Shown: piece by piece, positions 4,717 to 62,693 of the stretch | Position numbering within the stretch: the stretch's first letter is position 1 | Layout of the letters: every line of letters begins with the position of its first letter | NCBI GenBank assembly: GCA_003971905.1 | Contig: RSEE01000029.1 | Span: 372,001 to 436,000 of the forward strand | Length of the DNA stretch: 64,000 nucleotides | From: Moniliella sp. 'wahieum' | Taxonomy: Eukaryota | Reading direction: 5' to 3' | Position numbers and translations under genes: made by a program | Notes under the pieces: generated by a model | What the model was told of the DNA's origin: nothing | Seen by the model: the letters and a program-made list of their open reading frames with translations, nothing else | Database searches by the model: none

Positions 4717-6660
4717 GCTGCAATGGAATATCGTGTTAGGCCGTCTGCTGGAACAAGTCTGCTGTATTGTCACGCTAGTCTGGTCTGGGACGATAGGAGA
4801 AATGTTGATTGGACGGCCGTCTAGCCGGTTTTGAGATCTGGTGTCTGCGCTGTAACAACCATCAAGTCCCTTTCGAACCCTTCAGGCCAATGCATCTCGT
4901 AGAACATGAAACAAGAGTTATGAAGGTTCAAGTGCATCTGTCAGCGAACCCATCCAATTAAAACGAGCGTCCAAACTGATTACGGACACTTCATCCGTGA
5001 GAGCATGGGCGCAACGCCCTGGGTACCTTGCGCGAACCTAGGAGAAGCAAAAGAGAGGGTGAGAAGCACGGAAGGCTCTTCGGAACTATGTTGTGGTCTT
5101 TAAGAGAGAAATGGATATGGGGCCGAATGCATCAGTACTAGTAGACATTCATTGCTTGGCCCGGTAAGCATGTCGTATAGTGCGAGTTGATCATATACCC
5201 GGTTCGAAAAATGGGACGCAAAATTCCACCCGGTTTCCCCTCAGAGTGCCATGCTACACCAATACGGTCGGAAGACCCTTCCTGACTGGCTCGAGTAGAC
5301 AAAGAAATCATGGTTGGGGGGTTTAAGATTATTGAACGTGTGGCGACACATAATCCGTCCCTCTCATCTCCACCAGTACCAGCACAGACTTGCTATCCTT
5401 CCTCGCATCACCGCGGAGGCGGCAGCGAGAGGAAGAGGGTGAGTGATGCGGCCTGAGAGGGAGCGTTCAGGCTGAGCGCTCAGGCTGAGCCTCACCACAA
5501 AACCAAAAGTGGGCCGAGTTGTACAAAAGAAGATGCTGCCCTACTACTATTTCCGAGCAAAACCATACTTTATCCTCTTGAGGTAAAACACCGCGTTGTA
5601 GCAGCCCGTAGATCGAGCAAATACCAAAATGAGCAAGCGGGACAATACAAATACTAGTAACGTGTGCCGGCAGATATCATCCAGTAATAGCTAGTAATGC
5701 ATGGTAATGCATACTGGCCACCCGTGGTGCGCGTCCAAGACGAGGTCCACGGGTTTGGTGACAAAGGCAATGATTAATGATTAATGACCGTCCCTGATGC
5801 GATCGACTCTTTACATGTTACACGTAGGGACTAGCAGCGGATGTCTCAGATGATCGACGAGTGGGGTTTTCCGAAGTCGTGTGGGCGTGTGTATGGGCCC
5901 CGGCAAAGTGTAACGGAAGACAATATATGCTTTTTTGTACAATAGCAGTTTAGTAGGGCAGAAACATACATGTGGCAGCTATGTGAAGTTGGTTGTTGGG
6001 AAGCCGAAGAAGAGCTTTTCTGTCTTCCCCTTTCTTCACCTCATCAGTGCGGACGACAAATACGATCGACGCAGTTTCTGGGACTCAGTCGTGAGACTCA
6101 TGTTTCTTCTTCGCTTGTTCGGGTGTGCAGGCCATGCACTATACATTTTCGTCCTCATCCGTTCAGCGAAGAGTTTATATTGTGGCCAAAGGCCACTGAT
6201 GCAACCGATGAAGCAGTAGTAGCCTAGTGCCAACAGCTGGGAAGACGGGGGGTTGCGCAATCTATCCTGGTCAGGCTGGTTCTGCGCCGGTCGACGATGG
6301 ATGCCCGTACCCGGGGGAAGAGAACGCTCGGTCCCAACACTTGGGGGCTGCAGTGGGATCAGATATATACGCTTCTTCTTTCGCATCGAACCACGCCGAG
6401 TTGGCTTCCACTTGCCATCCAATCACGAGCGTAATGACCATGTCAACGAACCGGCACCAAGCCAGTCGAGAAGTCTGCGGGCTTGCAGCACAGCGGCCTG
6501 CATACGGCCAGTACACGTACACCCATCGCAGGCATCGTGCCAAAGCTACAAGCTATCAACCTTACTATCCCCTCCCGAGCCTGCGCTACGCCTTTTTGCG
6601 TGCTGCGACGATCGAAATAAAGAGTACACTTTTTCCCCTGCTCTGCTCCCGCGCTACGCC

Positions 6661-8686
6661 TTAGGACGCCTCCACTGGCTCGTAACTCCACACGCGGGCA
6701 TTAAAGTCGCCCGATCCGGTGGCCAGCAACCCGCCTGCCGGGCTGAGGTGGATAGCAATCACGCTATTCTTGTGTCCCTGCAAGACGACTTGCGTTTCGG
6801 CCGTGTCTGGGTCCCAGAACATCACACCACGGTCCTTGCTCCCCGACGCAATCCACTTACCATCAGGCGAGCACGAGACGCTCAAGACATAATCCTTGTG
6901 TCCCGCCAAAGTGGTTACCGTTGGACCATCTCCCTGCGTAGGCCGACCCTGGACGCGCGCAACGGTACTGCTCAAATCCCACTTCTTTACCGTCTTGTCC
7001 AGCGATCCCGAAACGAGCGACGAACCGTCCGGCCCAAACGCGACTGAATAAATCGAGTCGGTATGACCTTCGAGACACTCAACTTGTTGCGCCGTACGCG
7101 CGTCCCAGACACGAACGTACGTGTCCAGCGCACCGGCTGCAACTAGGCGCGAATCCGAGTTGATCGATACACTTGTCACTCCAGCTTCGGGCGCCGAGGT
7201 GGAATTGGGTACCGTGCCCATGGTCAAAGTGTGCATCAACGTGCCCGTATCCACATCCCATATCCGAACCGTCATGTCCCCCGATCCCGACGCAATGATC
7301 TTCCCGTCCAACGACCAGTCGAGCGAATAAATCTCCTGCTCATGACCCTGAAGCAAATGCTTGATGGTGCGTGAAGCAATGTCCCAAATGCGCACCTGCC
7401 GATCCTCCGCTCCCGTAGCGAGGTACTTGCCATCCGGACTGAAACACACAGACCGAATGTACAAATCTTCTTCGGCTCCGCCGCGTCCTCAGCCAAGATG
7501 GCTACCCGAGCACCTGTCGCTGTATCGTAGATCTGGGCAGAACGGTTGCACCCCGTCGCAACGTACTTGCCATCGAGAGAGAAGCGAACGCAGCACACGA
7601 CCGAATCATGCACCATGCTGTGCACCAAGTTCAACTTCATCCGCCGCGGCACCTGCGGGTTAAAGATAGCAATCCAATCGGATCCTTCCGTCTTGAGCGC
7701 TTTTGGCACCTCGTCCGGATCCAGGTCGGACAGGTGAGCAAGCGCCTTGTTCGCCTCGGTCGCACTGGCAGGAGCCACTTCCTTGGCAGCAACAGGAACC
7801 GGCGTCGCCATCGGTACCTCTGCACTGCGTACCTCTTTTCCCCGTGGCGAGGGCACAGAGGCAGCAGGTTCGCGATACGGCGCAGGTGGTGCCTCCCATT
7901 GGTACCCCTCTGCCATGCGTAGCCGCTTCGGTTCCGGCGGGGGAAGGCGCGCTGCGTCCCTCGGTTCCGAAGGCGGGAGGTGCGGTGGGGAACGGGGACG
8001 AGGGTACTCTCTCAAATCGGGCGGGCCAAATGGGTTTTGGCCAGGCCCGACAGGGATGGGGACACTGTCAGGCCGTTGGTCGACCAGCATGCGCAGCCGC
8101 TTGATTTCCTCGCGGTACCTTGGGAGAGAATGGGGTTAGAGCACAGTACGTATTACAGATGGATGTACGGAGGGGAGGTCCTCCGCAGAGGAGGAGAAGC
8201 AAGTGCAAGGTGCGAAACGGAGGGGAGGAGGGGAGGAGGAACGTACTGGGTGACAATTTCCGCGTGTCGCTTCTCGAGCTCGGTGACTTGGGCCTGCATT
8301 GCCCTGACCTCCTGTACCTGGGAAGTCATCTGACCTTCGATCTCTTCGCGCTGAGTGCGCAGCACCATGTTGTCCTGGCCGAGCACGTCGAATTCTTGGC
8401 GGATCGTGCCAAAGACGTCGGTCAGACGAGCATGGGCGGCGGTAAGCGCAGCAGAGGCCGCGGGGGGGGCACTCATGCCAACGACGACGGCAGGCGTGGG
8501 CGCAGGCGGGAGGCCGGGCGCAGGGGGCGGGGGCATGGCCGCGGCTGGGGGCAGCGGGGTGCGGCGGCCATCGCGGTCGTCGCGCAGGGGAGCCGGGGCA
8601 GGGGAGGAGGTGGTGCCGTTGGTGGCGCGCGGGTTGGGGGGGACGCTGATGGGGACGAGGGAGCGGTGCTGGTAGATGTGCGACAT
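6661..8686 (-). CDS. TUP1: General transcriptional corepressor Tup1 (Tup_N coiled coil + WD40 propeller)
   Basis: N-terminal [24 protein letters not shown] across intron 8119-8246. Also [80 protein letters not shown]. One frameshift near 7480. Confidence 0.96.
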
Positions 8687-9909
8687 GCCCGGCGCAGTGC
8701 TCGCTCACACTCGACTCACACGCGAAAAAGGCGCGGGTGGTGGGCGGAAGCAAGAAGCGGGGGCGGGGGCTGGGTGCTGGGTGCTGGGTGCTGGCTGAGG
8801 CTGCGCTGAGTCTGAGTGCCGACGCGGCTTGGGCTCGTCTGAGCTGCAGGCGCCAGCAGCTGGCCAGTGCCTGTGGGCCCGAGCAGGCGCCTGCCGCTTG
8901 AATTGAACGTTCAGTCATCCACGTTCCACCGCCGCCGCAGGCGCCCCGCTGGGGTTTCCGATCAGCCATCACCCACCACCCGCTCACGCGCCGCCGTCTC
9001 GCTCACCGCTCATCGGTCACCAGTCACCGACCATCGAGTACTGACTACGGCGCCAGCGTACTCAGCTTGTCCTGGTCCTGGTGTGGTGGACGCGGTGCCA
9101 GGTACACCCCAACGTAAGTACGCTGCAGCACACCGACGACGGACACAAGAACCACGGAGCTACCCGCTACTGAGTTAGTAGCTGCCACCCACTACCCACC
9201 AGGCGCGCACTGCCAGGTCTTGGGCCACTAGCACCGCGCCCACCCAGCACGGGCGATCTTCCATTGGGCCTTGGGGCCAGCGCCCAGCAGCCCACAGCTC
9301 GACCGAGCTGTGTGATCGATGCTCGGGGGATCGGTGATCGATCTGATCGTACGCCCTGCTCCCCACTCGCCCTCCTATCCGACAGCCGATTGCTGGGCCC
9401 TGCCGCCTGCTGGGCCTCGCGTCCGCGTCCCGCGTCCCGCGTCCCGGCCGGCGTCCGGCTCGTGGCTGACGCTACGTGTGCTACGGCCAGCAGCCATGGT
9501 GCATGATGCATGAGTATGACCTGCTACAGCCTCTTAAGCGATAACTTTAGTTTGCCCGGGCCTTCCATGGACCTCGCATCCGGGCTATCCCGGAATGTGC
9601 AGCAGATGCACCCAGGCAGGAGTACGTCCTTTTAAGCCTCAAGCTTTACCGGCGTAACGTTTACTTTTCCCCTTCGCCCGATCGACCCGATCATCGATCA
9701 TTGATCATCGACCGATCACTCGATCACTTCGATCATTTTTGCTTTGGCGGTGTAGTGCCTGTTTTGGCTACCCCACCAGCCACCACTGCGAGCATGCCCC
9801 ATGCAAAGTTTCACGCCCCCATCCCTTTCACATTTCAACGTCCTTGTCTTTCAACCCGCCTGCATCGAGCATCCTGCATCCTGCGTATCCTGTCCCTTTG
9901 GTGCCCTTT

Positions 9910-10087
9910 GTCATAGTTTGGCTGATCTCGCTCCCATTTCCAATTTCTTCGTCTCGAGCGTCTCGCTCCTTCCCTGTTCCTTCCACTTCGCACCATGTCC
10001 TCTGTTCTTGCTTCTTCCCCACGAACGATTGCTACACCCTTGGCCTAGTCCGATCCTGGTCTCCTCGCCTTAGCCCCGACTGTGACA
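9910..10087 (+). mobile_element. Dispersed repeat copy A, solo-LTR-like, ending in TGTGACA
   Basis: Near-identical to the reverse complement of 37632-37819 (gtttggctgatctcgc..tttccaatttcttcgtctcgagcgtctcgctc..ccccacgaacgattgctacaccc..ttagccccg.ctgtgaca). The terminal 14 nt are duplicated at 10090-10103. Confidence 0.8.
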
Positions 10088-13275: not shown

Positions 13276-13834
13276 TCGTGGGAGCGGTTGGGCAGAACGC
13301 CAACGCCAACGCCAACGCCTGTCACATGTCGCAGCGCGTCAGCGCGTCAGCCGTCATCGCGTCGTCATGCAGTCGTTTGTCGTCCGTGCTTAACTATAGG
13401 CGGTCGTATCGCGCATCGCGCATATATCGTTCCGTGTATTTGTACCTACACTTGCGCTTCCCATCGGGTTGTGAGATGCTACTACCTTGTCTTATTTTGC
13501 TCTATCCATCCATCCACATCCATTTTCCTCTTCCATCCATCCACAACCATTTATCTATCGATCTATACTATCTATCTCTATCTCTATCTCTATCTTCTGT
13601 CGATCTTATCTCGCCACACTTGTTTATCTCTCTTCCAAACAGCTCGAGGTACCCGCGGTACTGCACTGGGAGAAACGATGGGAATACGATGGAAAGGGTT
13701 CATCGCGTGGCGCACACCAGGGGTATCGAAGGTGTTTTTTTGCGTGCTGCGGCAGAGAATTGATGAGGCCGAGGGGGGCTGAGTACAGTGGGTATCGATT
13801 TACCCCACAATGTTTGGACTGACCTAAGGCCTAA

Positions 13835-13862
13835 TGAAGCTTGAAGCTTGAAGCTTGAAGCT
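13835..13862. repeat. (TGAAGCT)4 heptamer array
   Basis: Read directly from the sequence. Confidence 0.95.
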
Positions 13863-14003
13863 CCTTGCTAGAAGTTAGACCCGGACGTTGAACCCTCAGT
13901 TGAGGATGTTGAGGTGTTACATGTTAGGTCTGAGGTTATTAGGCGAGGGTGATTTATGGTTGGGTGTTACATGTTACATTGATCTTGGGCATTGTCACCT
14001 GTC

Positions 14004-16114: not shown

Positions 16115-16148
16115 TACTGGTTACTGGTTACTGGTTACTGGTTACTGG
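16115..16148. repeat. (TACTGGT)n heptamer array, about 5 units
   Basis: tactggttactggttactggttactggttactgg. Confidence 0.9.
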
Positions 16149-16279
16149 GTACCACCGCCGCTGCCACCGCCACTGCCATCGCCTAGAATGACCGCTGTTG
16201 CTTCTCGCCCGCGTCCAGCACAGTGCGCCTCACGCTTGTGTTCGTCTCCGGGTCATCACTCACTTGCCCTTCCTACATG

Positions 16280-17130
16280 ACATTGCGAGGATGATGACGT
16301 TACGATTCCAGGAGCGCGACGAAATGGTGGTGTCAAGATCACTATTTTTCTCCACTGGTTTCTGACAGAGTGTGCACTGCACCCTTGTCCATTCTCAAGT
16401 TCCTTCTGCAGCCACGGCCCCCGGCAAGCCTAAGCGTCCCACAAGGTTGGTAAAGAGCACGGATGATCCTCCGCTGGCTTAAGAGGGTGGGTACAACACC
16501 ACCACGGTCGCCGAGAACACACCACATATGTTTCATGCTGGTTGGTGCCGCCAAGGCAGAGCCCGAGCCATCTGTCGAAGATGCAATGCGGAATCAGTTG
16601 CAAGGCAAGAAGACCCAGTCAGTGCTGCTACTGCCGCGGGGACCACTTCACCACCCGCTGTCCGTACAAGGATACACTTGTTTCCGCTGTGGGGGAAGGA
16701 CTGGACCACGGACCAGAAAATCCGGAATCCGGCACTTAATGACCCCTCTAACGCCACTGTGGGTGCCAGTGCGGCTGCACGCACCGAGTGCTACGTTCTT
16801 CCCGGCCAGCAGGAAGGAGCTGCGTCACACTTTAGTCCTGCCTCGATGGGTGGCGGGTCGCGCGACGAGCAGCCAATGTTGTATGTGACCAAGCTTTCAG
16901 AAGAGGTGCAGGAGGGGGACTTGCGGCAACTCTTTGGTCGCTTTGGTCAGGTGACCCGGGTGTTCGTCGGGCGGGATCAGGAGACGGTACGGGACAAAGG
17001 GTTCGCGTTTGTATCGTTTGAGATGGTTGCCGATGCGGACCAGGCACGGCAGAAGGTGGCTCAGTTGGGTATGCCAACCTCATGATTCTTTCGGTTCAGT
17101 GGTCCCAGCTGCGCGGGGAGCAACCAACAC
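16280..17130 (+). pseudogene. TIF35: Translation initiation factor eIF3 subunit g, degenerate copy
   Basis: Zn-knuckle CCYCRGDHFTTRCPYKDTL (from 16623) and RRM MLYVTKLSEE..LFGRFGQVTRVFVGRDQET..KGFAFVSF..ILSVQWS. The 5' half is broken by stops and frameshifts and conserved residues are substituted. Identity is confident; pseudogene status less so. Confidence 0.7.
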
Positions 17131-17214
17131 TGAGTACTGAGTACTGACTGCCTAACTTGTTGTTTTATCTCGTTGGTGACTTCTTGCCTAGCGCCACGGA
17201 CGTGAAAAGTACAA

Positions 17215-18523
<1,309 letters not shown>

Positions 18524-26754: not shown

Positions 26755-26763
26755 GATGGGCAA

Positions 26764-29084: not shown

Positions 29085-29819
29085 ACCGACTGAACCTGTT
29101 GTACTTTGTACTTATACCTCCTCTGTTTCATTCTGTATTGGCCATGGTGAACCATGCATCGGTCGTAGGTTTCATTCGCTACCGGTAGGCATCCTCAGCA
29201 CAGGGCGTGTCCACCCACCTTGCTCAAGGCGACGCGAAGCGCTTGGCGGCCACGCTTCCCCTTGTCCGCGCCAGCTACGCCACCCTCGGTAGCCATCTTG
29301 TAGTCGTCCTGACGTTGGAGGCGGGAACCAGCGCGCTAGAGAGGGCGGAAGAGCGACGCTAGAATGCGAAGCATATACTGGACGCAGATAGGAGAGAGGG
29401 AAGGACCGCTGGTTGTGGACGACCGATAGCCCGGTGCGTTGGCGGAGAGGCCGTATCATCTCAACCACTAAACACGAGGCATGACGCGTGACGCGTGATG
29501 AATTGTGCAAGAATCGATGATCGATGATCTGCAGTCGGCCAGATGGGCCTATTGCGGGTGGGCAGCTTGGGGGCAGTGTGGTGCTAGGGTTGGCTTTAAA
29601 GCCGCGCGAAGTGGAGCCAAGCGCTGGATGCCAGCATCAGATTAATCCGAACGCTGGATTGGGTTGGGTTAGGTTGGGTTGAGTTTGGGATGGGAGGTTT
29701 GAGAGCTGCTTCTCGCGCATACTTCTTGGCCTGGCCCTCCTCCACCTCCTCCACCACCCCACCACCTCCACCTCCTCCACCTCCACCTCCCCCACCTTCT
29801 CTGCCACCACCCCTTCACC

Positions 29820-35035: not shown

Positions 35036-37336
35036 GGCACAAAGGAAAGAAAGGTCAAGAGGAGGTGGTGGGGCAGGCAAAGGAAGTGAGGGAAGAAGCT
35101 ATCAGCGGTTCGGTTGGGGGAGGCCGAGGTTGGATTGCGTGGAGGAAGGAGATCCACAGCTCACACTACGCAGCCTGTGTCACTCTCCACTGCATAGCAA
35201 TGCCCTCAATCCGCCTTTCACTCTGTGTTCAATATTCACTAGCTCACTCTGTAACCCAACCTACTGACCCGACTCACCCCTCCGGCCCACGCGCCCACGC
35301 GTCACAACACGCACCCAGTGAGTGAGTACCTAGTAGATCCCAGTAACTGGGTTGCTCACAGCCTCAGGGTCTCAGGCCCTCCTCAGGTCTCGCCGTCACG
35401 CGTCCCTGGCCACCCCATTATGCACCACCCCCGCACAAGCCGAGCAGCTGGGCAAGCTGGAGGCCAGCTGGAGGCCGTTTGGGCAGTGCTAGCGACCTGT
35501 GGTTGCGCGAGCTTGATGCATGAGCGCCATGAGCGAAAGACCCTAACGAGCTAGTGACTACGAACCTCGGGAGCGAGCGCTGAGCTAGTGATATAGCTAG
35601 CTGGTGCTAGTGATCGAGTGATCGATGATGCTAGTGATCGACGTGGCGGTGGTCCGGTGATACCACTGGTTGCACCGCATTTGGCACTGCCCCCTTGGTG
35701 GCCACCGGTGATGGGGATCCGCACCGCCCTCGTACTCTGATTGGTTCGGTTTGGTCTGCAAATCCCTTCAAGCTTCACGCGTCACGCTTCAAGCTTCAAA
35801 ATCCATTTGCTCGCGAGCCAGGGTGGGCATCCCATAGTCCAATCGTAGGGTCGTCAACGCGCCAACGCGCCAACGAAGTACATGCAATATGCAACAGAGG
35901 AACAGCTTTGCAAGACCCCAACCCCCCAACAGACCCGTACTGAGCTACCGAGGACTCTCAAGCTTCTCAAGCCGTGTCCAATAATACGCCTGCCTAGCCC
36001 ATACTGGAAGCAAACGCAAAAGGTATTCAAGTTTAACCGGTTATCTAGGTTGTATAGTAGACCGTCAAAAGATATGCCCCCCTGGCGCCTATATACAGTC
36101 CCCTTGTCCTTCGCACATTGCCGTGCTATGCCATGTGTGCTGTTGGTCGAATGCCGCCACGTTCTGCGCCACCCCCTGGCCTTGCTTGCTCGGCCAGGCG
36201 CGTATGGGTGTGCGGTCGGGTCGAGAGGGGTATCGCAAAGGATAGGAAGACGGCACGGAAACTTTTCGCGTGAGAACTGCGCCATTTTGCTTGGTTAGAG
36301 TATGTGGACGCTCCGCACATGTCACACCTCAGTCGTGGAACGCAGCAAGCACAGGACGAGATAGCCGGCTCTCTGTTCCTCCTCCTCCTGGGCACCTGAG
36401 CTCGGGTTTTCTCCACGGTGGAACTCGACTGGTTGATGCATGGTGCCTGTCCATGATGATCTCGATGATCGTTCGGATTATCGATGAAGCTCTGTGATAC
36501 AAGTCAGGATGAAGCTTGAAGCTGCATCTTCATGCATCTCATGCATCATGCACATTGTGACACCAAATTCTAGTTTCCGACAGTCACTCTCTCCGACGTT
36601 GTAGACGTGTCATGCAGGTCATGCGTTCCTCTTGCTTGCATGAGCAGGGGGGGTCGCCCCGTCGTGCATCACCTTGTCGACGTTGGGCCTCCCTCCGGTT
36701 CTGCCCTGCGCTCTGCCAGCTCTGCCTGTTAGGCGGTACGGGCGACTCTGATAGAACAAACCTCTCATGTCCTCAAATGCTCATGCTTCTCACCTCTGGA
36801 TGCGATTCGTCCTAAGTCTACAGGGGAAGAGTCGGGTGAAAAGCATGCATTGGAACAATCTTCCACTCATCAGGCTCGAGGAGAAAGGCAAATGCACCCG
36901 GCAGAGAAAGGACGAGAATCAGATAGAATGCTTAAAGCGTATCGGCATCAACCGTTGCGACGCGGTTGGATCCGTGCTTGACTCTAATTGTTAATGGATC
37001 ATCATCTCGTCCTTCTCTGCGCGGGAGCAAAGCGTTCCATCGAGCGATCGAGGGAGGGGTTGAGCAACAAGCAAAACCAGAAGATGGATAATAGCGAGGA
37101 TCCGAATGCATTACTGGGGACATGTTGGTGGATTGGTGTGGTGGGGGGGTGGTTGGGGTTGGAGTGGTGGTGGTGGTGGTGGCCCAAAATGGTTTGAGGG
37201 TCGGACGGCTGAATAATAGGGCAGCACAAGAAAAAACCTGGGTGGAGGGTAATCGGTGCAATGCATTATTACCGCTGCAGCCGCCAATTCTTATGGATTC
37301 CGCCCAAATTGCGGCAGGTTCAGGCTGAACATTCAA

Positions 37337-37392
37337 TCAACGTTGAATTTTGAATGTTGAAGCTTGAAGCTTGAAGCTTGAAGCTTGAAGCT
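37337..37392. repeat. Eight-unit heptamer array ending in (TGAAGCT)5
   Basis: TCA ACGT TGA ATTT TGA ATGT followed by (TGA AGCT)5. Confidence 0.95.
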
Positions 37393-37631
37393 TACAGTTG
37401 GAACGCCCTTCGGAACGCAATACGGCTGTGTGCGCCTGCACCCCGTCAGACAGCAGCCACAACAGTAGAGAAGCAGCCGAGGGCGTATTATACGCGACGG
37501 AGCATTGAACTACGGGCCATACTTCATCATACCACTTGAGGACCACATGTTGTATTCTACCCTCCTAGTCGCGCATTGCGTACAGGATATCACTCTTCCT
37601 AAAAGCCAAGATGAGACGCACTCCCCCTGTA

Positions 37632-40757: not shown

Positions 40758-43230
40758 GGTGGTGGGGGTGGGGGAAGGATGGGGGGAAACAACGGGGGTG
40801 GAACGCAGACGAACAGCTATTATAACTAAAGGTCAAGATGGTGCAAAAAGGCAAAGTGACCCTTGTGAAACATTGACCTTAGTGTCGGCCAGTGCGTTAA
40901 TCGATGATCGAGATGATCGAGAGGCGATAATCACACCTAGATAAACCCGGTCTCCACACGCGACGAGGCATGGGGGCACTGTGCGGTGGCCACAAACGAG
41001 AACATGTGGGGGAATCAAAAACAGCTCTGGTGAGATTGAGATGCCTGAGTACCTGAGTGAGGCTCCGGCCCCTCTGAGGCCTCAGTCTGGGCTGGGCTCG
41101 CCATAGACCCGCTCTCATTCTCTTGGCATGATGAGGCCCGGAGCGGGAGGCAGCAGGAAATTTTGTTCGACGTGCTGTGAGTGATCATGGAGAGATGCGG
41201 ATGGCATGTGCTCGTCGCACTCGTCAAATGAAAGTGCGCCTTGGCAAACTTGGTGGGAGACCATATGGCGAGGTGATCTTGCAAGATGCAAGATGAAAGA
41301 TGCAAGCGTCAAGCTGCAAGCGGCTTCATGCACTTCATGAGCCTTACGCGCCTCCAGATGTTATCGACTATCGTAAGTCCGTGTGCTACACGTGGCTGGA
41401 CTTCAATGTCTTTTGGGCTTTTTCCAGAGTCTAGCTGTTCAACGGAAGGGCGATCTTGCCCTGTCTTGTTGCCACCTCTGTACTTTCTGTGCGGAGATCC
41501 AGGCTCTCTGTCGTGGTGACAAATTATGTGCCGGAAGCACACTGAAGGACTGCGAGCACTGATGCACTGATTGGTTCCTGTGTGTTTCCTCTGTGATAGT
41601 CAGGTGGCGCCGCGTTAGTGTAACTCACAGACCCTTACAATCGCTCATACATCATACCCACATTATCGATTATCACTAGCACTAGTCACTGTTAGTCACT
41701 CTCGATCTCGATTATTAAGTTGCGAATATGCTCTTCTAGGCAACAGACAGTGGAGAAAGACGGCTCCACGCTCCACCCACACAAGCAACAACCGCATGTC
41801 AGGAAATGTACAGGATGCATACGCCTGCAGGGCAACGCCATTGAATTCTCTTTTTCTCTCCCGCACTATCCATTTCACAGCGGACATATTCGAAGTGATT
41901 AGAGGCCTTAGGCCCCTTGTTTGGCGGGTGTGAGAGACTTGAAGCTTGACATGTGACAGATGTGCTGCACGTGTGTGGTCCTATTTTTTGCTTTCTGTGC
42001 TGCACCATTTCCGCGCCTATATATACTTTGTATGTAACTCCCACCTTTTACCTCAATTGAGGCCTCAGGCCTCAGGCCTACATCTGAGAGGGGGCGGATT
42101 GACCATGATCCGTCGGGGCTGTGGGAGAGAGTGTAGAACACCAAGTCGCCCACTTGTATATTTGACCACCGCCTTCAACATTGGATACACATCGCCTCAT
42201 TCGTCATTAGAACTGTGTGGGTCTTATACGTGGACCCGACCCCGAGTTCTGGGTTTCTCCAGATGTGAACGTGTGAACAAGAAAAAGAAGACATACTTTT
42301 TCGGGTAGCAACAATTCCACCAGGTGACCATCTGCAGGGTGTGGGACTCTCCCTCTCTTCCTTATCTCCACACTGATAATAGAGCACAGCGGCCGGGGCT
42401 GCGGACCCGACGGTTTCTTATTGTGGATTTGGGCAGAGGTTTGATGGTGCCGGACGAGGACGACATTTTACCATGTATTGTGGGAAATGAGATGGACGTC
42501 TCGCCACGCGCGTGAGTTTTCTGTGAGAAGCTGGGTGGGGACCTGCCGAGCCTTACCCTCAACTTACGGAACGGACGTGCGTCGATCGAGACTGTGATTG
42601 GACTGGAGAAAAAGGTCAACTTTCAACGTTCAACGCGTTCAAGTTCAACACGTTCAACGTCCAACCGATTATCTTGTCACTATCACTATATTGTGGATTC
42701 AGAAGCCCCGCACAAAAGCCGATGGTCGATGGGGGACGGTGGTATTTGAGAAAGCACGGTACACGTTGTTACTTGCAGCGAGATGTTCGAAGGCGCCAGC
42801 TGGAACTACTTTATCTCGAAAAACAACACCCCGGTGGGCGGGAAAGTTTTATAGTACAAGGAGACCACCGTCGGGCCTACGGCCCGGTCAGCTGCTGGGG
42901 CTTCTCGCCCCAGCTTGTGCTGGACGACCGTCGCCACAGTAGCCACCGTTCTACCGGTCTACCGTTCCACCTGGAGAGGGTACCATATCACCAATTTGAT
43001 CTGCTGGCGATTCCCCTGATTCCTTAAGTGGGGTTGGCGCTACCAACTAGTGAGCGCACGCAGGATGAACGGGTCGGTTTAGGCGCAGCGTTTCGTGTTC
43101 CCAGCCTTAGGCTCTGTCAATGATACGGTTGCAGTATAGTAGGTATGGCGTTGGCAATGGACGTCTTGTGGCAAGAGTGGTGGAGCGGAGAACCAGTGGA
43201 TGCTGCTGGTTCATATCGATGGAGTTGTGG

Positions 43231-43407: not shown

Positions 43408-43964
43408 TGTGGCTGATGCTTGGATTTTGCTTGCTGCTTTGCTATAGCGTCGGATGGGCCATTGGTCTGTTCCTTGCGAATTTCAGTGCTGCATGATGCA
43501 TGATACATGACGCGTGACGGCGGCTGGCCTGGGGCCTGAGGCTGAGTATACTGGGGCTGGAGTGGCGGGCTGCGGACTCCCGCAGTCACTTTCGCAGTGC
43601 CCCCCGCGGGAGGCACGGGGGCAGCCACACGCTGTCGGGATGCCGATCAGCGCCCTGCTGCCGCTGGTGCCAGGCTCGCCAGGGTCCACCTCTGCCGGGG
43701 GCGCGCGCGGATCACAGCGGCCGAGTGCCTGGGATAGGCCGCCGATCTGCTGACATAACCACCCGCCCCACCGGCCACGCGCCCCGAGGCGCGGCGGCGG
43801 CTTGGACGCCTGGGCACCCTTAGGGTTACCCAGCAGCCCTTCGCCTCAGATCAGCTGTCGCCGCCAGCATCCACCCAACCTCACCCCATCCATCCTCTCC
43901 ATCGCCGCCGCTGGCTCGGCCCCCTCCATCCCCACCCTCCCACATCTCCTCACGCCCGCGCGCA

Positions 43965-45957: not shown

Positions 45958-46959
45958 TCGTCATCATGCATCATGGTCATGGCCATCTATCACACTCTTT
46001 TTCGGTTCACGCGTTCACGGTCCACCTTTTGGATTCCTTTCTTGACTTGGTCGTATCACTCTCTTTCTCGGATCCGCCCCCAACTTCCTTTTGACCCGCA
46101 CCTTTTAACCTATGCCCTGCGGGATGACGTCGTCTTCCCCAGACATGGGTCTCCAGCCCCGGAGGCTGTCAATATGATCCTACGTTCCCTTTGCCGCGAG
46201 GTTTCCCACCGCTTCTCCTTTCGTTTTTTTTCGCTTTGATTTTGGCTCCTACTTGTCTGCTTGGTTATTATCCTTGCCATCTTTTTACCATGCCTCTTGC
46301 TTGCGTCGTGAAGACCTCTCTTAGTTCAACGTCCATGCGTCGTATAATGAAACCCGAAGCTCAGGCTCCCCTGCTCTTATTGGAATGCAGCGCTCATACA
46401 TCACGTGGAGCGGATGGGGAGGAACATGATGATGGGGATGGGGATGGGGATGATGATGGGGATGATGATAGGGAGACACCAGCTAGACGCGTGCTGCACC
46501 AACCAAGCTGAGCCTGCCTGGCAGAATAACCCACTGGTACAGGTACTGATGATCGGTGATCGATGATCTCACCTCACACACTTTTGAAATGCGCAGTTCA
46601 GTTCACGCCGCCGATCATCGATCATTGATTAATTGATCAATTGAAAATTGAACTGTTGAGTGATGAGCTCATCTATCTGATGTGGAGCTAACGTCGCCCA
46701 AGCCTGGTCTGTGCACACGTGCTCTATAGAGCCCGCCCAGCCCGCCCAGCCCACCCGTTTTGGATGGGGATCAAGCTTCAAGTCGATCAAGATGGACAGC
46801 ACAGAACCAGATGTCGGCGCTTCAGCCGAGTCAACCCACCAGTACCACAACGCCCCGAAAAGGACATAACTAGACAGCCATTCGTTCATTTCACACATTC
46901 CATTCATAAGCGTCACGCCGAGAGAAGGAGGACTTTGACGAAGAGGTGCTTTGGGAAAG

Positions 46960-51162: not shown

Positions 51163-51439
51163 CTCATCCTGTGTTTTTTTCGTTCAATCCCTCTTCCTTC
51201 AGAGGACTTCTTGTGATCCGGAAGGGCTACGCAGTTCAGGCTGAACCACCCCAGGTAGAACCGACCCGAGGAGAGGCAGCAGTAGGCGCCGAGAACGGGT
51301 GGCATCACGTGATGATCGATGATCGATGAGGCTCATCCCTGAGGTTACATACGCACCCCTGGGGTCCGTGCTGATACAGTCGCTCGTCCAGAGTCGCTCG
51401 CAGTCGCTCGCTCGCTCTACCACGTAGTTGCTCACCACC

Positions 51440-53882
51440 ATGTCCGACCTTTCCTGGGAGCCGACCAGTGCGAAGACCTACCCCCGTCCTGACTGGGTAC
51501 ACGACTCGACGCGCTTTGCGCTGCTCGACGGCGAGTGGACGGTGCTGTTTGATGACGAGAACCAGGGCACAGCGGCTGGCTGGGGCGCCAGCGGGCTCCC
51601 CGCCCAGGCTGGTGCGCAGGCGCAGCGCACCATCACGGTACCCTACGCCTTCCAGTCCCCAGCGTCGGGCATCAATGCTCCCCATGAGGCACATGAGTAT
51701 CTATGGTACGAACGCACTTTCTCCTTGCCCCAGGAAGTTGCCACGCAACATGTCTCCCTTCACTTTGGTGCGGTGGATTACGAGTGCTCCATTTACCTTG
51801 ATGGTCAGAAGATTGGAGAGCACAAAGGAGGTCACGTTCCCTTTTCTTTTCCTATCACCTCGTTCCTCAAGCATCAGGACCACAGCTACCGTCTGACGGT
51901 GCACGTCTGTGACTCGCCCTTCGACCTTACTCAGCCGCGAGGGAAACAGTACTGGGTTCTGGACGGTAGCGCCTCGATCTTTTACACTCCTACCAGCGGA
52001 ATTTGGCAGAGTGTATGGATGGAAGCATCGCCTCGCTCGGGAGAATCGCCAGCGCGCATTTCGGCCGCTCACACTATCCTCCGTACCGACATACTCAAGG
52101 GCGACCTGCTCGCCTGGGTTGCAGTCGAAGGCGGGGGGCAAGGCGCGGACCTTCGTGCGTCTGCAGAGGTATCTCTGGCCGGCATCCTCTTGGAACGTCC
52201 AAACAAGTCGCGGTGTCTCCTTTGAAATCGACGGAACTGCTGGCGGAGCCTCCGACGCTCACCCATTCCCTCCTTGTTTCTTCTACCGTGCAAGCCCAGT
52301 TGCCTTCGGCCTTTGTCGGAGCCCACCCTGCTTCGTCCACCACTACGAATGTGCTGAAATCGTGGCGTGATGCGCGGCTTCGGGGGGAAGACATGGTGCT
52401 GCAGCAAGCGGCCTGGTCGGACAACGGTGTGGCACTGTGGTCCCCGCTGCACCCGATTTTGTACGACGTGGTGCTCACCTGACCAATGCAGATGGTGAAG
52501 TGGAGTGGTGCGTACCACCGTTGGTGCCCGCTCGCTTGAATGGGACCCTATGCCTCTGCGCCAGGTGGGGGACAAAGAGGTACAGCCCAAGGGTGCCTTC
52601 CGCCTGAATGGCCTACCTTACTTCCACTGCCTCATGCTCGACCAGGGTTACTGGCCAGAAACCAACCTCACCCCCCCTGATGACGCAGCAGTGGGAGGGA
52701 CCAAGGGGATCAATACGGGTCTTGCGCTGAAGCGGGACATTGAGCTGGGCAAGGCGATGGGCTTTGATGGGGTGCGCAAGCACCAAAAGGTTGAGGATCC
52801 TCGGTTCCTCTACTGGGCTGATCGTCTTGGGTTTTTGGGTACGCATATTTTTTTTCTCTCTCTCTCATTCGGGTGACGAACCAAACGCTAACTTGTGCTC
52901 GAACTGCTCTCTTCTTCTTCAGTCTGGGGCGAGTTTGCCAATGCGTACCAGTGGTCGGAGGAGTACGCAGAGCGGATCGAACAAGAGTGGACGGAATCCA
53001 TGCGGCGCGACCGGAACCACGCGTCGATCGTGGCCTGGACCCCGGTCAATGAAAGTTGGGCCTACACCGATCTGGAACAACGCGATGAGCAGGGCCACCT
53101 GACTCAGCTGGCATTGCGCCAACGCCAGCATATTGGCCAATTGGTCCAGTTGACCAAGCACCTCGATCCCACCCGTCCCGTCAACGATAACTGTGGCTGG
53201 CAACATGTCGCTGGTGACTTTGCCTCCTTCCACGATTACAGCGATGGCACAATACTCTACGAGACGTGCCGCCACCTCCTCCCAGCCGAGCCAAACGGAA
53301 CGCAATCTTGGGGATCAAGGATGAAGGTCGTCGGGTGATGTTTGTACCGTCACCCGGCACGGCGCAGGCGGCCGTAGCAGGCACCACGTTTACAGGTGCA
53401 CCCTTGCCACGGGGTATGTGCCCGGCATGCCTGTCCTCAACACCGAGTGTGGCGGGATCAACATTTCGACCACCCAAGCGCAGCCCGAGGCGAAAGAAGC
53501 TCGGCCTCTGGCGGACAAGATCTCGGTATTGGAGGCGACTACAGCGGTGCCGAATGGGGGTACACGACAGCCTCCTCGGCACAAGACCTGCTTGCGCGAA
53601 TCCGACGCGTGGCTCTGGCGCTGGTAGGGGTCAAGGTGGCAGAGCGCGAGGGGGGCTTGGACTACGCGTTGTCCAAGTGTCCTGCTCAGGGAGTACGCGG
53701 GCAAGAGGCGGCTGGAGCAACCCATCTGTGTGGCATGGTGTACACCCAACTGGCCGATTGCGAACAAGAAACTAATGGCCTGCTAACCACAGCGCGAAAG
53801 CAAGTTGCCCAACGAGGCACTCCAGGCGGTCCTGGACGAGTTGCGCACGGTCTACTTCGCCAGCTTGGGGGAGTGGGTTTAA
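51440..53882 (+). CDS. Glycoside hydrolase family 2 (beta-galactosidase/glucuronidase-like)
   Basis: [59 protein letters not shown], acid/base [15 protein letters not shown], nucleophile-like [21 protein letters not shown]. Intron 52839-52922. Frameshifts. Confidence 0.9.
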
Positions 53883-54508
53883 CGTTTAACGCTTGACGTT
53901 TATGTCAGTGTAGAGATACGAATGGATTGCCTATCCGCGTATAGCTATTACACCGAGCTTGACCTGGCCTGCCTTGGCTTGACCTGTGGGTTAGGCCAGG
54001 GATGGCGCGGGCGCATCAGACCTCTGCCAGTTTACTAGAGAACCAGTAGCGTCACGTCGGATTCTTGGCGTCGGATGTAGGAGGGATACTAACCGATGGC
54101 CAAGGTATGCTATGAGAATGTCATTGCTCAATGTGGCATGTCGCTGTAACGATCCTGGAAATTGAGCGTTGAGCGGGGCGACATGACGCAAGCGTGTGCC
54201 ACCGCGCTCAACCCATCAACGCCATCCTTGCGTTCCATGTCGGATTGGCCAGCGCACTCACGCAACCCGCCCCGCAACCGCCAGTTAGTATTTACCGCTT
54301 ATCGATTATCGATAAGTTGTTGCTTTACGATTTCGATTACCGATTTTTGGACGATCGATAATCGATAACTCAATCAATCGGAGGACCGTGTTCATGTGTT
54401 CCGCGCTGCTTGCTCATCGCCCCTGAGGGAGGATTGACCTGTTCCATCCTGCAAAATTGGAATCGCCTGCCCCACCTGCTCACCTCCTCGACCCCCATCC
54501 TTCCTACC

Positions 54509-56376: not shown

Positions 56377-57038
56377 AGGCGGCGGGGCGGCGGAGAGGCG
56401 ATGGATTAGATTGGATGCGATGCGATGGGCTTGCGTGTGTGCGTTGCGGTTGCGTAGCATTCAGCCTACAGGAGCGGTAGCAGATAAGCGCCAACGTATA
56501 TATAAAGGGGGGCGCCGTCTGCCAGAAGGGGGGAATGGGCCTCGACATCTCCATCTGGGTCGACCGAAGCAGCGTTGAATTTTGAAGGTCAACGTGCAAT
56601 GTTCAACCACGTGCCGCCATGGAGGTTACGGCGTTAGTTACCAGTGGCCAGCGCCCAAGCGCTGAGGCGCTGAGGCGTCCCAGGCCAAGCGTCGACACGT
56701 GCAGTCGTTGAACACCAAACACCGAACATTGAACATTGAACTCTGGCGCGGCCACAGACTGGCAGGCGGCTGGCGGCTGCGCGGACACTGGCGCTGCGCC
56801 CCGAGACGCCCATCATGCATCATGCATCGGGTGTGCATGTTCAGTCAGCGCTCAGCGATTGTCGGTTGCCGATGGCCGATTCGTCGATTAGTGAGCCTCC
56901 GCGGCTGAGCTCACGCCATCCCTCTGGGTCGCTCAGCTGAGCTCAGCCCCCCTGCCTCTCGCCTCCTCCCACCGTGCCTGGCCCTGCTCGGCGCTCCCGC
57001 TCTCGCTCCCCCCATCCGTCGCCTCCCCCCTTATACCC

Positions 57039-59263: not shown

Positions 59264-59305
59264 CGCGGTTTCGTAAACCGCGTACCAGTTGCGCCCGCAG
59301 GTTAC

Positions 59306-59340
59306 ACGTTAAACGTTAAACGTTAAACGTTAAACGTTAA
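59306..59340. repeat. (ACGTTAA)5 heptamer array
   Basis: Read directly; lies about 40 nt downstream of the SYP1 stop. Confidence 0.95.
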
Positions 59341-60233
59341 CGTTAAGGTGCGCCGAAGGAACTTATCACCTACTACCTATCACCCCCACCCAATCACATT
59401 CGCTCGTTTTTTTGTTTGGCTTGGCTTGGTTTGGCGGGCATCGGGTATCCGGATCCTTGCCTCCTTTCCTCCTTTCCTCCTTGCTTCCCTTTCTTTCTTT
59501 CTTTCTTTCTTTCTTGGCTCCGTGTTCTTCTTTGATCCCCTCTTTTGGTCTCTGCTTGGAAGTTGTTGTTTGCGTGCGTGGGGTGCTTGTGTGGGACGCT
59601 ACGACCCGCGGGTTAGGGCGGCGGGTGGTGCGGGATCATCGATCAGGCCTCAGGTGCGTAGCAGATTCGTATTCGGCGCTGGGAGCGGTAGATTGGGGGT
59701 TGGGGGTTGGGGGTTGGATGTTGGGGGGTTGCTTCGATGGAAGCTTAAAGATTGAAGCTTGGAGCTTGGAGCTGGTCTCGTTGGGACTCGTTAATTGGTC
59801 CTGTGAGGCTCTGGTTCCTTTCCGGCCTTGGGAGTTCAACCCCCACCGCACGAAGTTCATGCAATTGGCCGGTGAGATCTGTGATGGATCAAGCTGCTCA
59901 GGCAGATGAAGGCCAGAAATGAATCGGTGGGGATGCAATCACGCGAAGGCAGCAAGCGGAACGGGGCCGCTGCACACAAGCCTATAGACTGCGTAAGTTT
60001 ACTTGGCGCATATATCGCATGTCGCCCACCTTGCCTTGTGGCTCGCCCGTCCGCCATCCGCTCTGACCTGACCGATGACCTCGACCTCTTTTAGCCTCCA
60101 CCGTCTCTCGAGCAAGTTGACGTTGTTGCCGGTATGGTGCGAACGCTGGCGCCTGATCTATGCGCACATCTGATTGTGCCAGCGGCGAGGAGGACACATG
60201 GGGTGAACATACGTTACATGTGCCATTCCACAC

Positions 60234-60328
60234 GCTTCAATGGGTTAGTGGTATACTACATCGTTGCCAGACAGCCCTAGTGCCTGTGAGACATCGATGT
60301 GACAGGGGTTCGATTCCCCTTTGAAGCA
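60234..60328 (+). tRNA. tRNA-Gly(GCC) with a 24-nt intron (60270-60293)
   Basis: Acceptor stem GCTTCAA/TTGAAGC, D-loop AGTGGTA, anticodon stem CATCG/CGATG with GCC at 60266-60268, T arm AGGGG-TTCGATT-CCCCT, and an oligo-T terminator just downstream. Confidence 0.93.
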
Positions 60329-60727
60329 CTCTTTTTGTTTCCTTCATTTTTTTGCGTTCCCCCTGTCCCGGATTGCCCCAAAGTTCATGCAATGCTTGCT
60401 TTAGGGGTTAGCACAGCGCCAGCCTGGCCCTTCCTGATCCTATGCTTTAGGGGGCGGGCGGGTTAGCACCGCAGTGTCATTGAGAAGTCTCAGATTCAGG
60501 TGTGCGGTTCATGATTTCAAATTTCAGTGCTCTCCCCTTCCTTCTCGACGAGGCAGAGGCGTTGTGAGATGGCGGCAGCGGCTTCTGGGTTAGGGTTAGG
60601 TAACCCGGAGAGCATAGGGTCCCAGGGTACAGGGTATCGGGGTTCCCGGTTCCCGGTTACCGGGGTGCTCAAATTTCAAAGGGCTAAAGGCAAAAAAGGT
60701 CATCAGCGTGCCGCTTGAAGTTTCCCT

Positions 60728-60759
60728 AGCTTCAAGCTTCAAGCTTCAAGCTTCATCGA
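60728..60759. repeat. (AGCTTCA)4 plus TCGA heptamer array
   Basis: Read directly from the sequence. Confidence 0.95.
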
Positions 60760-62693
60760 CTTCATCGGCCATCGGTGCATCGGAAGCGCCGGTGGTGGGG
60801 CCAGGCAACCGGTAAGGTCAAAGACGCATCCGCATCAAGCCATCTGCACCAACCGCTGGGGATAGATTTGCCGGATGTTCGATGAGATCTGAGAAGACCA
60901 TGAACGAGTGGGTAGATACGTTGATAGGATGGTCGATGATCTATGAGTACTCGATGAGTACGTTGAGTACTTTGGGAGGCAGGATGCTCGGTTCGGTCGC
61001 CCGTTCGGTCGCCCACTCGGGACCCGGCCGCACCCTGGCTGTCTCATCGGCCATGCATGATCATCGATCATACATCTTCCCATGTATCAAGCTTGAACTT
61101 CAGCTGAAGCGCTGAAGCTCAAAGACCGAATGGGCGGTTGCGGTCGGAACCTGGACGAGCGCAAACGTCATCGCTCCATCGATGGATCCAATCATACGTC
61201 GTTCCGAGTACTCCAGAAGGGTTCTGGAAGCCTGAACAAACCGAACATACTGAGGATGCCTTCGAAGGATGCATGGGATCTTGCGATCATTTGGTCCCTG
61301 CACGAATGAAATGATCGATTCGATGAACAGAGTGACGATATAGCTTGCCGAAGCGTGACGCTTGAAGCTTGAAGCTTGAAGCTGATGAAGCCTAGCTGTA
61401 GTGAGTGACTCGACTCGATTGCGATAGCCAACTAGTCAATAGCCAATTGTCAACCAATCGTCCATTACTAAGTACTCAATAAGCGGGCAGTTCGCCAGCA
61501 GCCAGCCGGGCAAAACAAACGGAACTACGGCCAATGCACGGCTGTTTCCGAGCTGCTGCCTCTTCCATGGTACATGGTACGGCTGCTATTGGGGCAGCTG
61601 GGGTCCATCGCTTGTTGTCGCTTGGAACGGTTACCACGTCGAACGGGGTGGCCGGGACCGCGTAAGCAGGAACTACATGCATGTGTGACATGTGAGCCCT
61701 CAGCCTGAGGCTCAGGCTGGACGCGGGTTGGGGGCGGTAGGGTCACAGGAGACTGCAGCAGGAAAAGGGCCTAGGGTCTACTTTGAATACCAACGTGTAA
61801 CATGTACCGTGTGCCAGGCCCAGCGTACCGTACGTACCCGGGACACGCAGGCCAGCGAGCACACTGTTAGATCTCCGATCTCACTCATCAAGTCGATGGC
61901 TTATTGGGATGGTGAGAGACGGCTAAAATGGAGAGAAATGAATCTATTCAAGCGATCTGAGATCGGAGATCGGACGTGTGGCGGGTGAGAGGCGAGGGAC
62001 GGGTGAGGGGCGTGGGAGGGTGGATGGGGGCAGTGGCGCCAAGCGGAGGCGGGGCGGGGCAGCAGCAGCAGCAGACACCAGGCACGACGCCAGCGGGAGC
62101 GTTGCGCCGATTGACGACGGAAGCTTGAAGCGCTGAAGCGGAAGCGCTGAGCCAGCCACTTGCCACACCAAAGCCACCCCAGGTGGCGGCGGCCCGCAGA
62201 CGGGCACTGTCGGGTGGGCTGCAGGGTCTGTGTGGGATGGTGATCGAGTGGGTGATGCCGCCGAGCGGGATGCAGATGCAGATGCAGGGGGCAGGACGCA
62301 GGGTGTGGCCACCCACCCAGCACGCCCCCTGGCAGCGCGCCCACTGGCCGGGTGCGGGCCGAGCGGCAGGGCCTGGCGTGGGCTTTGCCTCGCAAGCCCC
62401 GCTCGGGAGCATACATGCGGAGCACTGGCCATCCGAGCGCCTCAGCAGCCCAGACGCCAGCGGCCAACCATCGCAGCGCCTGAGAAAAAAACAGGCCAAG
62501 CCAAGCCAGCACCCTGCTCGGCCACGCCCCCATCCTCTTCCACCCGCACCCCACCACCTCTTCCGTCCCGCTCCTGCGGCCCCCCGATGCGCTTCGCGCG
62601 TCCGCTCCTCTCCCACTCCCACTCCCACTCATACTCCCACTCATACGCACCGCTGCCTGCCCGCCCACCTGCTAGCCCCCACACCCACACACC

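Follow-up and report, generated by a model that had tools for sequence, protein, structure and literature searches.

We analyzed a 64-kb stretch of the genome of Moniliella sp. 'wahieum' (64,000 nucleotides of contig RSEE01000029.1; "the window" hereafter means this whole stretch of DNA) that carries short arrays built from a T-N-A triplet (TNA, where N is any base) and a 4-bp palindrome, repeated with a period of 7 nt. These palindromic TNA arrays are real, and the observation is very strong. Coding DNA was delimited with a model self-trained on codons, by which 55% of the window is predicted to be coding. The genes are ordinary: Pfam confirmed Tup1-like, Sel1, RNase III, RRM, tyrosine phosphatase, ribosomal S18, histone deacetylase, thiolase, malate dehydrogenase, kinase, OPT transporter, GH2, M20 peptidase and F-BAR/muniscin genes.

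Arrays in the window

Motifs were counted as two T-N-A triplets of identical N enclosing a 4-bp palindrome, and the Markov background was derived from 20 order-3 simulations. Run length was defined as the maximal perfect period-7 run around each motif (49 runs). The loci are given below by coordinates, length, triplet and palindrome, with strand entered as '.' throughout.

1442..1453, 12-mer, TCA + ATAT
5769..5787, 19-nt array, TGA + TTAA
5811..5822, 12-mer, TTA + CATG
9500..9513, 14-nt array, TGA + TGCA
9688..9701, 14-nt array, TCA + TCGA, with decayed units onward to ~9736
13823..13834, 12-mer, TAA + GGCC, adjoining the array at 13835..13862
13835..13862, 28-nt array, TGA + AGCT, 4 units, predicted single-stranded DNA hairpin of -7.8 kcal/mol
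13915..13926, 12-mer, TTA + CATG
13965..13979, 15-nt array, TTA + CATG
17129..17147, 19-nt array, TGA + GTAC, in a ~136-nt gap between convergent RRM and phosphatase genes
29482..29498, 17-nt array, TGA + CGCG
29513..29529, 17-nt array, TGA + TCGA
31671..31682, 12-mer, TGA + GATC
35228..35238, 11-mer, TCA + ATAT
35514..35523, 10-mer, TGA + TGCA
35619..35629, 11-mer, TGA + TCGA
35766..35799, mixed chain with constant TCA and, in order, AGCT, CGCG, CGCT and AGCT
36510..36523, 14-nt array, TGA + AGCT
36539..36552, 14-nt array, TCA + TGCA
37357..37393, 37-nt array, TGA + AGCT, 5.3 units, the longest, predicted single-stranded DNA hairpin of -10.1 kcal/mol
41662..41674, 13-mer, TTA + TCGA
41938..41958, mixed chain with constant TGA, AGCT then CATG, the central TGA being common to two 12-mers
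42060..42079, 20-nt array, TCA + GGCC
42622..42635, 14-nt array, TCA + ACGT, then decayed units to ~42665
43490..43504, 15-nt array, TGA + TGCA
43508..43519, 12-mer, TGA + CGCG
45962..45975, 14-nt array, TCA + TGCA, 8 nt past the end of a predicted coding segment
46557..46568, 12-mer, TGA + TCGA
46612..46625, 14-nt array, TCA + TCGA
46771..46782, 12-mer, TCA + AGCT
51311..51329, 19-nt array, TGA + TCGA
53877..53891, 15-nt array, TTA + ACGT
54299..54313, 15-nt array, TTA + TCGA, inverted partner of 54354..54368
54354..54368, 15-nt array, TAA + TCGA, exact reverse complement of 54299..54313
56811..56828, 18-nt array, TCA + TGCA
56845..56857, 13-mer, TCA + GCGC
59306..59340, 35-nt array, TAA + ACGT, 5 units
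59634..59654, mixed chain with constant TCA, TCGA then GGCC
60514..60526, 13-mer, TCA + AATT
60669..60680, 12-mer, TCA + AATT
60728..60755, 28-nt array, TCA + AGCT, 4 units
60883..60894, 12-mer, TGA + GATC
61059..61071, 13-mer, TCA + TCGA
61360..61383, 24-nt array, TGA + AGCT
61684..61695, 12-mer, TGA + CATG

An earlier reading of the window, made from the letters alone (the sequence-only reading), had drawn attention to these arrays, and every example it listed was located exactly or within a few bases. The motif occurs 64 times, at 46 loci, compared with 1.5±1.1 in the simulations; one link is present at 34 loci, two at 8, three at 2 and four at 2. A palindromic 4-mer occupies 79 of the 190 occurrences of T.A....T.A (41.6%), against a baseline of 6.1% for all 4-mers, and in the other 15 X.Y frames the palindromic share is 4.0-9.8%. 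The enrichment of palindromic 4-mers between phased TNA triplets that the sequence-only reading had predicted is therefore present, and its count of at least nine palindromes sharing one frame can be raised to 13 of the 16 possible 4-bp palindromes. TNA-flanked palindromes of length 2, 6, 8 and 10 were found 10, 1, 0 and 1 times, respectively (simulated 5.8, 0.3, 0.0 and 0.0), and so do not rise above background. The triplets used in the motif are TGA (30), TCA (22), TTA (6) and TAA (6), with every other triplet at 7 or fewer. At the loci, TSA and TWA (S = G/C, W = A/T) stand at 37:9 vs 835:357 in the background; the choice of N simply tracks availability.

Perfect period-7 runs of at least 14 nt number 60, and in 26 of them the unit is one base plus a 6-bp palindrome, a class whose chance share is ~11% by our own arithmetic. 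Twenty-five of these 26 are of the A....T type and the other is TCCGGA. Tandem Repeats Finder also reports numerous short period-7 arrays in the window. Counts of perfect tandem runs of at least 2p+1 nt are 32, 38, 39, 10 and 4 for periods (p) 5 to 9. In predicted non-coding DNA the match fraction is highest at lag 7 (0.291; lags 6 and 8 reach 0.279 and 0.267, respectively), and runs of at least five matches amount to 47.5 per 10 kb at lag 7 vs 25.4 and 19.2 at lags 6 and 8. Coding DNA has the usual multiples of 3 instead, with no period-7 excess, so that the proposed excess of period 7 over periods 6 and 8 is borne out in non-coding DNA.

Without the palindromic class, period-7 runs lie roughly on the declining trend from period 5 to period 9. 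Non-palindromic heptamer arrays are also present, namely TACTGGT x5.4 (16115-16152), CGAGAAG x4.4 (10539-10569), GGGTGCT x4.3 (8765-8794) and TTGGGGG x3.6 (59693-59717). Perfect 10-bp palindromes of the T.A type number 10, about twice the mean of the other classes.

Although 55% of the window is predicted to be coding, 44 of the 46 loci fall outside this coding part (P = 1.6e-13), which corresponds to ~1.6 loci per kb of non-coding DNA. Convergent (3'/3'), divergent (5'/5') and tandem gaps are occupied alike. Between two + strand genes, 5 arrays have TGA/TAA on the + strand and 4 on the - strand; between two - strand genes the numbers are 2 and 2. There is no strand or orientation rule, a result by which a role in supplying stops in all three frames after genes was ruled out. 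The claim that most intergenic spaces carry arrays was overstated, about half being nearer the mark: a locus is present in 12 of the 25 predicted non-coding gaps that measure 300 nt or more, and in 9 of 16 when the cutoff is raised to 500 nt.

Anatomy of the unit

Run lengths among the 49 runs are distributed as follows: 10 nt, 1; 11 nt, 2; 12 nt, 16; 13 nt, 5; 14 nt, 8; 15 nt, 5; 17 nt, 2; 18 nt, 1; 19 nt, 3; 20 nt, 1; 24 nt, 1; 28 nt, 2; 35 nt, 1; and 37 nt, 1. Thus 37 of the 49 are no longer than 15 nt, and copy number ranges from 1.4 to 5.3 units. If the 10-mer TNA-pal4-TNA (pal4, the 4-bp palindrome) were the unit, chance extension of 10-mers would leave most runs at 10 nt. Instead, in all 16 of the 12-mers the 2-nt extension is one-sided, with no case of one base on each side, whereas chance predicts that a third would be of this 1+1 kind; the probability of 0 of 16 is (2/3)^16, or ~0.002. 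The 12-mer has the form TNApq-q'p'-TNApq (p and q, any two bases) or the corresponding mirror image, that is, 5-nt direct repeats around a 2-nt inverted copy of their own end. Note that at 46 of 46 loci q'p' reverse-complements the neighboring pq, a relation built into the palindrome. It is the one-sided identity of the 2-nt flank that marks pq as ancestral. Since deletion of any 7 consecutive bases of the 12-mer restores TNApq, the most parsimonious origin is the insertion of 7 bp beside a unique TNApq. The format given by the sequence-only reading, an A....T hexamer plus one spacer base, is correct as far as it goes, and the generating unit can be refined to the 12-mer TNApq-q'p'-TNApq.

This anatomy was examined in a scan for structures consisting of a direct repeat of k nt, an inverted segment of m nt and the direct repeat again, tabulated by k, m and TNA start. 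In the class k=5, m=2 (hereafter 5+2), 82 of 147 structures (56%) start with TNA, while all other classes with at least 40 occurrences are at or below 11%. In 82 cases the dinucleotide in between repeats, in inverted form, the end distal to TNA, and in 5 cases the end that carries TNA. For k=3, m=0, in which TNA is directly repeated, the TNA share is 2.7%, the background value.

Run counts in non-TNA control frames fall from 10 nt onward (28, 18, 17, 8, 5...), with a small excess of 12-mers. Thirty-three 5+2 loci not starting with TNA were listed, or ~29 after removal of alternative phases of TNA arrays; by our own reading of the list, ~10 of these have T only, ~10 have A only and 1 has a complementary A..T pair. 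Self-pairing of T and A to close the loop of a mini-hairpin is unsupported: the C.G, G.C and A.T frames are at baseline, and this, together with the excess of half-matches, argues for base-specific recognition rather than T·A pairing. The half-matches and the small non-TNA 12-mer excess suggest the same event, at a lower rate, at near-TNA sites.

In the three mixed chains of the window (35766-35799, 41938-41958 and 59634-59654), N remains constant while the palindrome changes, and the chain at 41938-41958 is readable as two 12-mers on one TGA, one built from each flank. Around the 12-13 nt runs (n=21), the position 7 nt upstream on the side lacking the extension holds an in-phase T in 13 cases, G in 14 and A in 13, and none of these is seen downstream. 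This pattern fits the addition of units at array ends. Decayed units are present alongside intact ones: non-coding pairs of TNA with the same N comprise 62 that are palindromic, 22 with the outer pair only, 10 with the inner pair only and 22 with neither, and pairs with different N comprise 13, 9, 3 and 15 in the same order. Loss of the inner pair often resembles CpG decay of TCGA. The loci are also clustered, with 20 of 46 having a neighbor within 60 nt vs 8.2±3.4 for random non-coding TNA sites; only 2 of 2000 simulations reach 20. Such clustering is in keeping with self-propagation and hot spots.

Several local features accompany individual loci. Just upstream of the four-locus cluster at 13823-13979 lies a 27-nt tandem repeat (2.1 copies) followed by TATC/TCTATC microsatellites (13494-13595). 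A perfect 10-bp palindrome, TCA+ACGT+TGA (37337-37346), stands within a longer imperfect palindrome directly before the longest array (37357-37393). Taken together, the paired TTA and TAA + TCGA arrays at 54299-54368, ~40 nt apart, amount to one larger inverted repeat, which lies just upstream of the gene for the M20 peptidase.

Relatives and other fungi

The closest named matches belong to Ustilaginomycotina: those of the M20 peptidase are from Violaceomyces and Tilletia (~41%), and those of the thiolase are from Tilletia, Pseudozyma flocculosa and Tilletiaria (61-66%); one further contig gave a protein match of up to 84%. When metagenome contigs were searched for close relatives using the M20 peptidase, 598 pattern matches were obtained and 0 were confirmed.

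A scan of metagenome contigs with a 17-nt TGA + AGCT array returned at least 121 loci. Among the matches listed, contigs L001, L004, L047, L062, L084 and L117 carry other TNA + palindrome motifs and mixed chains, and in the mixed chains of L004, L117 and L001 N is again constant while the palindrome changes. Outside the seed arrays the motif excess is modest: the three best groups have 15 vs 9.6 expected, 10 vs 3.6 and 9 vs 2.0, and the others about 1. With seed arrays masked in 567 kb of metagenome contigs, structures with k=5, m=2 are nevertheless rich in TNA (53 of 268, or 19.8%, vs 1-9% in 8 other classes). The array design is thus present in independent metagenome assemblies and not confined to this genome, although its density here is far higher.

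Contig L067 derives from an Agaricales fungus, and its AreA-like protein has its best named match in Crepidotus (62%). It is homologous to L002, with 88% identity by BLAST and 94.5% over aligned columns, and a CTTGAAG array has three units in L002 and two in L067. A search of the Atlas with one open reading frame (ORF) of L004 gave no usable match, and Pfam gave none for 12 ORFs of L004 and L001.

Other metagenome contigs show how arrays are embedded in larger repeats. L020 (1-15179) holds four diverged paralogous segments of 1.3-1.9 kb with 77-83% identity, all on one contig, and two of the four have a TGA + AGCT array ~200-250 nt upstream. In L084 (200-510), each copy of a ~100-nt tandem repeat contains TCA + AGCT and TTA + GGCC, which shows that whole motif-bearing blocks can be duplicated. 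An identical TCA + AGCT x2 array occurs in the AT-rich contigs L010 and L046, with ~87-89% identity around it, and may be part of a dispersed repeat rather than an orthologous locus.

Origin of the arrays

On balance we favor, with some reserve, the reading of the arrays as scars of a stereotyped, still-active mutational event, a templated insertion anchored at TNA and followed by slippage, and not as functional sites. The arrays have a 5+2 anatomy, a TNA anchor, a constant N and mixed chains, are restricted to non-coding DNA, are clustered and vary in unit number. From these features each locus would be the record of one or more 7-bp insertions, probably with an enzymatic cause. The confinement to non-coding DNA, the occupation of all gap types, the usage of N and the decayed units are how neutral scars would behave. 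The sequence-only reading had put forward a mutational or repair process, and we agree that such a process is the best reading.

In the proposed event, a site T-N-A-p-q would gain 7 bp to become TNApq-q'p'-TNApq, in which the 5-mer is directly duplicated and its last two bases appear once more, reverse-complemented, between the two copies. The palindrome pq-q'p' would be made by the event itself, so that any palindrome is possible and the A....T hexamer and the period of 7 are automatic. Every event would leave a new TNA. Repetition inside the product would add an identical unit, giving homogeneous arrays, while an event at the end of an array or after a point mutation would add a different palindrome with the same N, giving mixed chains; longer arrays might then gain and lose units through hairpin-assisted slippage. 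Because a 7-bp insertion breaks the reading frame, selection would keep such scars out of coding DNA. Two routes are our leading candidates: (i) a TNA-specific enzyme of the nuclease or transposase type could make a staggered break, and its filling in could be accompanied by the addition of two templated nucleotides to one end, in the manner of the 'P nucleotides' of hairpin opening, or (ii) lagging-strand or gap-repair synthesis could switch template onto a displaced 5' flap. We could not derive the 5+2 product from any single textbook pathway.

A bolder version, which we advance tentatively and think has somewhat more chance of failing than of holding, is that the process is an undescribed, sequence-specific and self-propagating one in basidiomycetes, hyperactive in this lineage. 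An enzyme that recognizes TNA, perhaps a domesticated transposase or nuclease, would trigger a fixed 7-bp 'duplicate five, invert two' product that regenerates its own target and thereby fills non-coding DNA with palindromic heptad arrays.

Several results weigh against the insertion reading. No enzyme was identified for the event: Pfam found no transposase domain among the 83 predicted coding segments of the 64-kb window, and a search of the window for elements bearing terminal inverted repeats (TIRs) plus target-site duplications (TSDs) gave only chance-like matches. Runs of 14-15 nt number 13, compared with ~4 expected by our own arithmetic from chance extension of 12-mers, so that a second route (for example tandem duplication or the decay of longer arrays) also contributes. 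The pq dinucleotide is used unevenly, with TC at 11 vs ~3.9 expected, AG at 9 vs ~3.4, and CC, CT and TA at 0, which could reflect target preference or selection. In two homologous metagenome pairs, 18 indels included no new 5+2 insertion and only the difference of one array unit. Note also that all window counts come from a single 64-kb window and that the gene map, from the self-trained codon model, is rough.

Ordinary microsatellite behavior, in which self-complementary heptamers expand by slippage and are stabilized as hairpins like CNG repeats, seems to us improbable as the explanation, even though part of it is evident. The copies do stand head to tail, and unit number varies, as the 26 perfect arrays of at least 14 nt and the single-unit difference in CTTGAAG between the two related Agaricales contigs illustrate. 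Folding was computed for single-stranded DNA, with z relative to shuffles. Arrays of at least 3.4 units are predicted to form 5-6-bp stems that carry one mismatch in each unit and end in a TNA triloop, over a range of -6.4 to -12.2 kcal/mol. Energies were between -6.4 and -10.1 kcal/mol for the four TGA/TCA + AGCT arrays (z from -3.9 to -5.3), -7.0 kcal/mol for the GGCC array (z -2.6) and -12.2 kcal/mol, with a z of only -1.1, for the TAA + ACGT array, while three non-palindromic heptamer arrays folded no better than shuffles. Arrays of ~2.7 units (-0.5 and -1.7 kcal/mol) also did no better than shuffles, and most loci are shorter. The hairpin with one N.N mismatch every 7 bp that the sequence-only reading proposed is therefore predicted for arrays of at least 3.4 units but not for those of ~2.7 units, and because 37 of 49 runs are at most 15 nt it cannot be the origin of the seeds; predicted hairpins may help the slippage of long arrays.

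A slippage microsatellite would have an arbitrary unit without a fixed register, whereas here the unit is TNA plus a palindrome and the commonest run, a 12-mer, holds 1.7 units and has fixed boundaries, which slippage in a repeat already present cannot create. Moreover, C....G and G....C hexamers, which would form stronger stems, are unused, and mixed chains would require paired compensating changes. We thus agree with the sequence-only reading that ordinary slippage does not account for the format, given the 12-mer mode, the TNA rule and the short, unfoldable loci.

Still less credible, in our estimation, is that the arrays are excision footprints left by many insertions and excisions of a TNA-targeting cut-and-paste transposon, each consisting of a TSD and a few palindromic bases. 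A direct repeat around a short inverted segment is the classic form of a footprint, and it is the form of the 82 TNA-starting 5+2 structures; the clustering of loci also resembles local hopping. TNA is the symmetric 3-bp type of site used by PIF/Harbinger and IS5-group elements, whose TNA/TWA targets resemble the anchor here. According to PMC12730594, canonical Harbinger elements have 3-bp TSDs, and hAT lineages with 5-, 6- and 7-bp TSDs are known in basidiomycetes and others. The duplication here, however, is 5 bp plus 2 inverted and not 3 bp; TNA-TNA with nothing between is at background, and what stands between the triplets is always 4 bp, not an element. No PIF/Harbinger element, and no transposase or element of any other kind as noted above, was found in the window, for which ~1.6 loci per kb of non-coding DNA would be very dense. 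Footprint junctions are normally heterogeneous, whereas only 5+2 is seen here, with the inverted bases taken from one side.

Three specific versions were tried and rejected. Remnants of TIRs, with TNA as the TSD and 2 nt contributed by each end of the element, would require 13 families that differ in their termini and leave pq after the second TNA unexplained; the 13 palindromes and the identity of the 12-mer flanks ruled them out. Another version, in which an odd-palindromic target gives a 7-bp TSD, was ruled out because the mode is 12 nt and not 14, and the 14-mers are mixed in phase. A canonical hAT-type footprint with a complemented edge base does not yield the sequence by our own derivation.

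Least plausible of all is a function as cis-elements, whether sites for a protein reading TGA/TCA half-sites 7 bp apart, which the sequence-only reading had offered as a second possibility, or DNA or RNA hairpins that serve as insulators or terminators. In its favor, bZIP and homeodomain factors use TGA as a half-site, the loci are clustered and confined to non-coding DNA and the arrays at 17129, 45962 and 59306 lie just past gene ends, but a set of 13 of 16 palindromes cannot be read by any single protein, neither the conserved sequence nor the bias in position or orientation of a transcription-factor array was found, all gap types are occupied without a strand rule, copy number runs from 1.4 to 5.3 units and varies between relatives, short loci are unfolded and N tracks availability.

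Hairpin-forming transposases and V(D)J-type joints produce a direct duplication and a short inverted copy from a staggered break and 'P' nucleotides. Like such footprints, the arrays have a short duplication joined via the reverse complement of the flank, with a palindrome set by the site and not by the enzyme. Unlike them, the arrays are invariantly 5+2, have their added bases on one side and have TNA at one edge of the 5-mer; they also appear to differ in reaching 5 units and in being associated with no element in the window. The likeness to CNG triplet repeats lies in self-complementarity, one mismatch per unit and a predicted fold when long enough; unlike CNG repeats, the arrays have a period of 7, a locus-specific unit and mostly too little length to fold, and their origin is not slippage. 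Microsatellite surveys usually stop at 6-nt units, which may be the reason that we found no description of the arrays.

In yeast, template-switch or fold-back insertions create or lengthen palindromes (PMC5677150, PMC11724301), and palindromes are elongated and quasi-palindromes corrected in rad27Δ strains (PMC5677150). The abstracts give ~5-34 bp for fold-back insertions at breaks (PMC11724301) and ~150 bp for small inverted triplications (PMC13334657). The resemblance to the arrays is that replication or repair errors copy a few bases from the wrong strand, palindromes are made or lengthened and the order is direct-inverted-direct; by these accounts the mutations have no fixed anchor and are variable in size, whereas the arrays have a TNA anchor and a fixed 7 bp. 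The arrays would belong with templated-insertion scars and palindromic microsatellites, both of known kinds, in a form that we did not find described: a full-text literature search, covering main texts, returned no description of them, nor any support for the abundant heptamers of Ustilago maydis that the sequence-only reading had mentioned.

If the insertion reading is correct, the arrays constitute a readable mutational signature with a fixed anchor (TNA), size (7 bp) and geometry (5 direct + 2 inverted). They would show that arrays resembling microsatellites can originate in unique sequence that held no earlier repeats, and would explain why these can be palindromic. Comparison of fungi with and without the signature would give a handle on the responsible nuclease or repair defect. 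At ~1.6 loci per kb of non-coding DNA, the process would also supply hexamers resembling restriction sites, DNA prone to hairpins and hypervariable markers, which could be used in strain typing and would bear on the evolution of promoters and terminators.

One candidate RNA gene lies among the arrays. ARAGORN reports no tRNA in the window, while Rfam places one (54.3 bits, 95 nt, probably intron-containing) at 60234-60328 on the + strand, within the locus-rich non-coding stretch at 59.3-61.7 kb.

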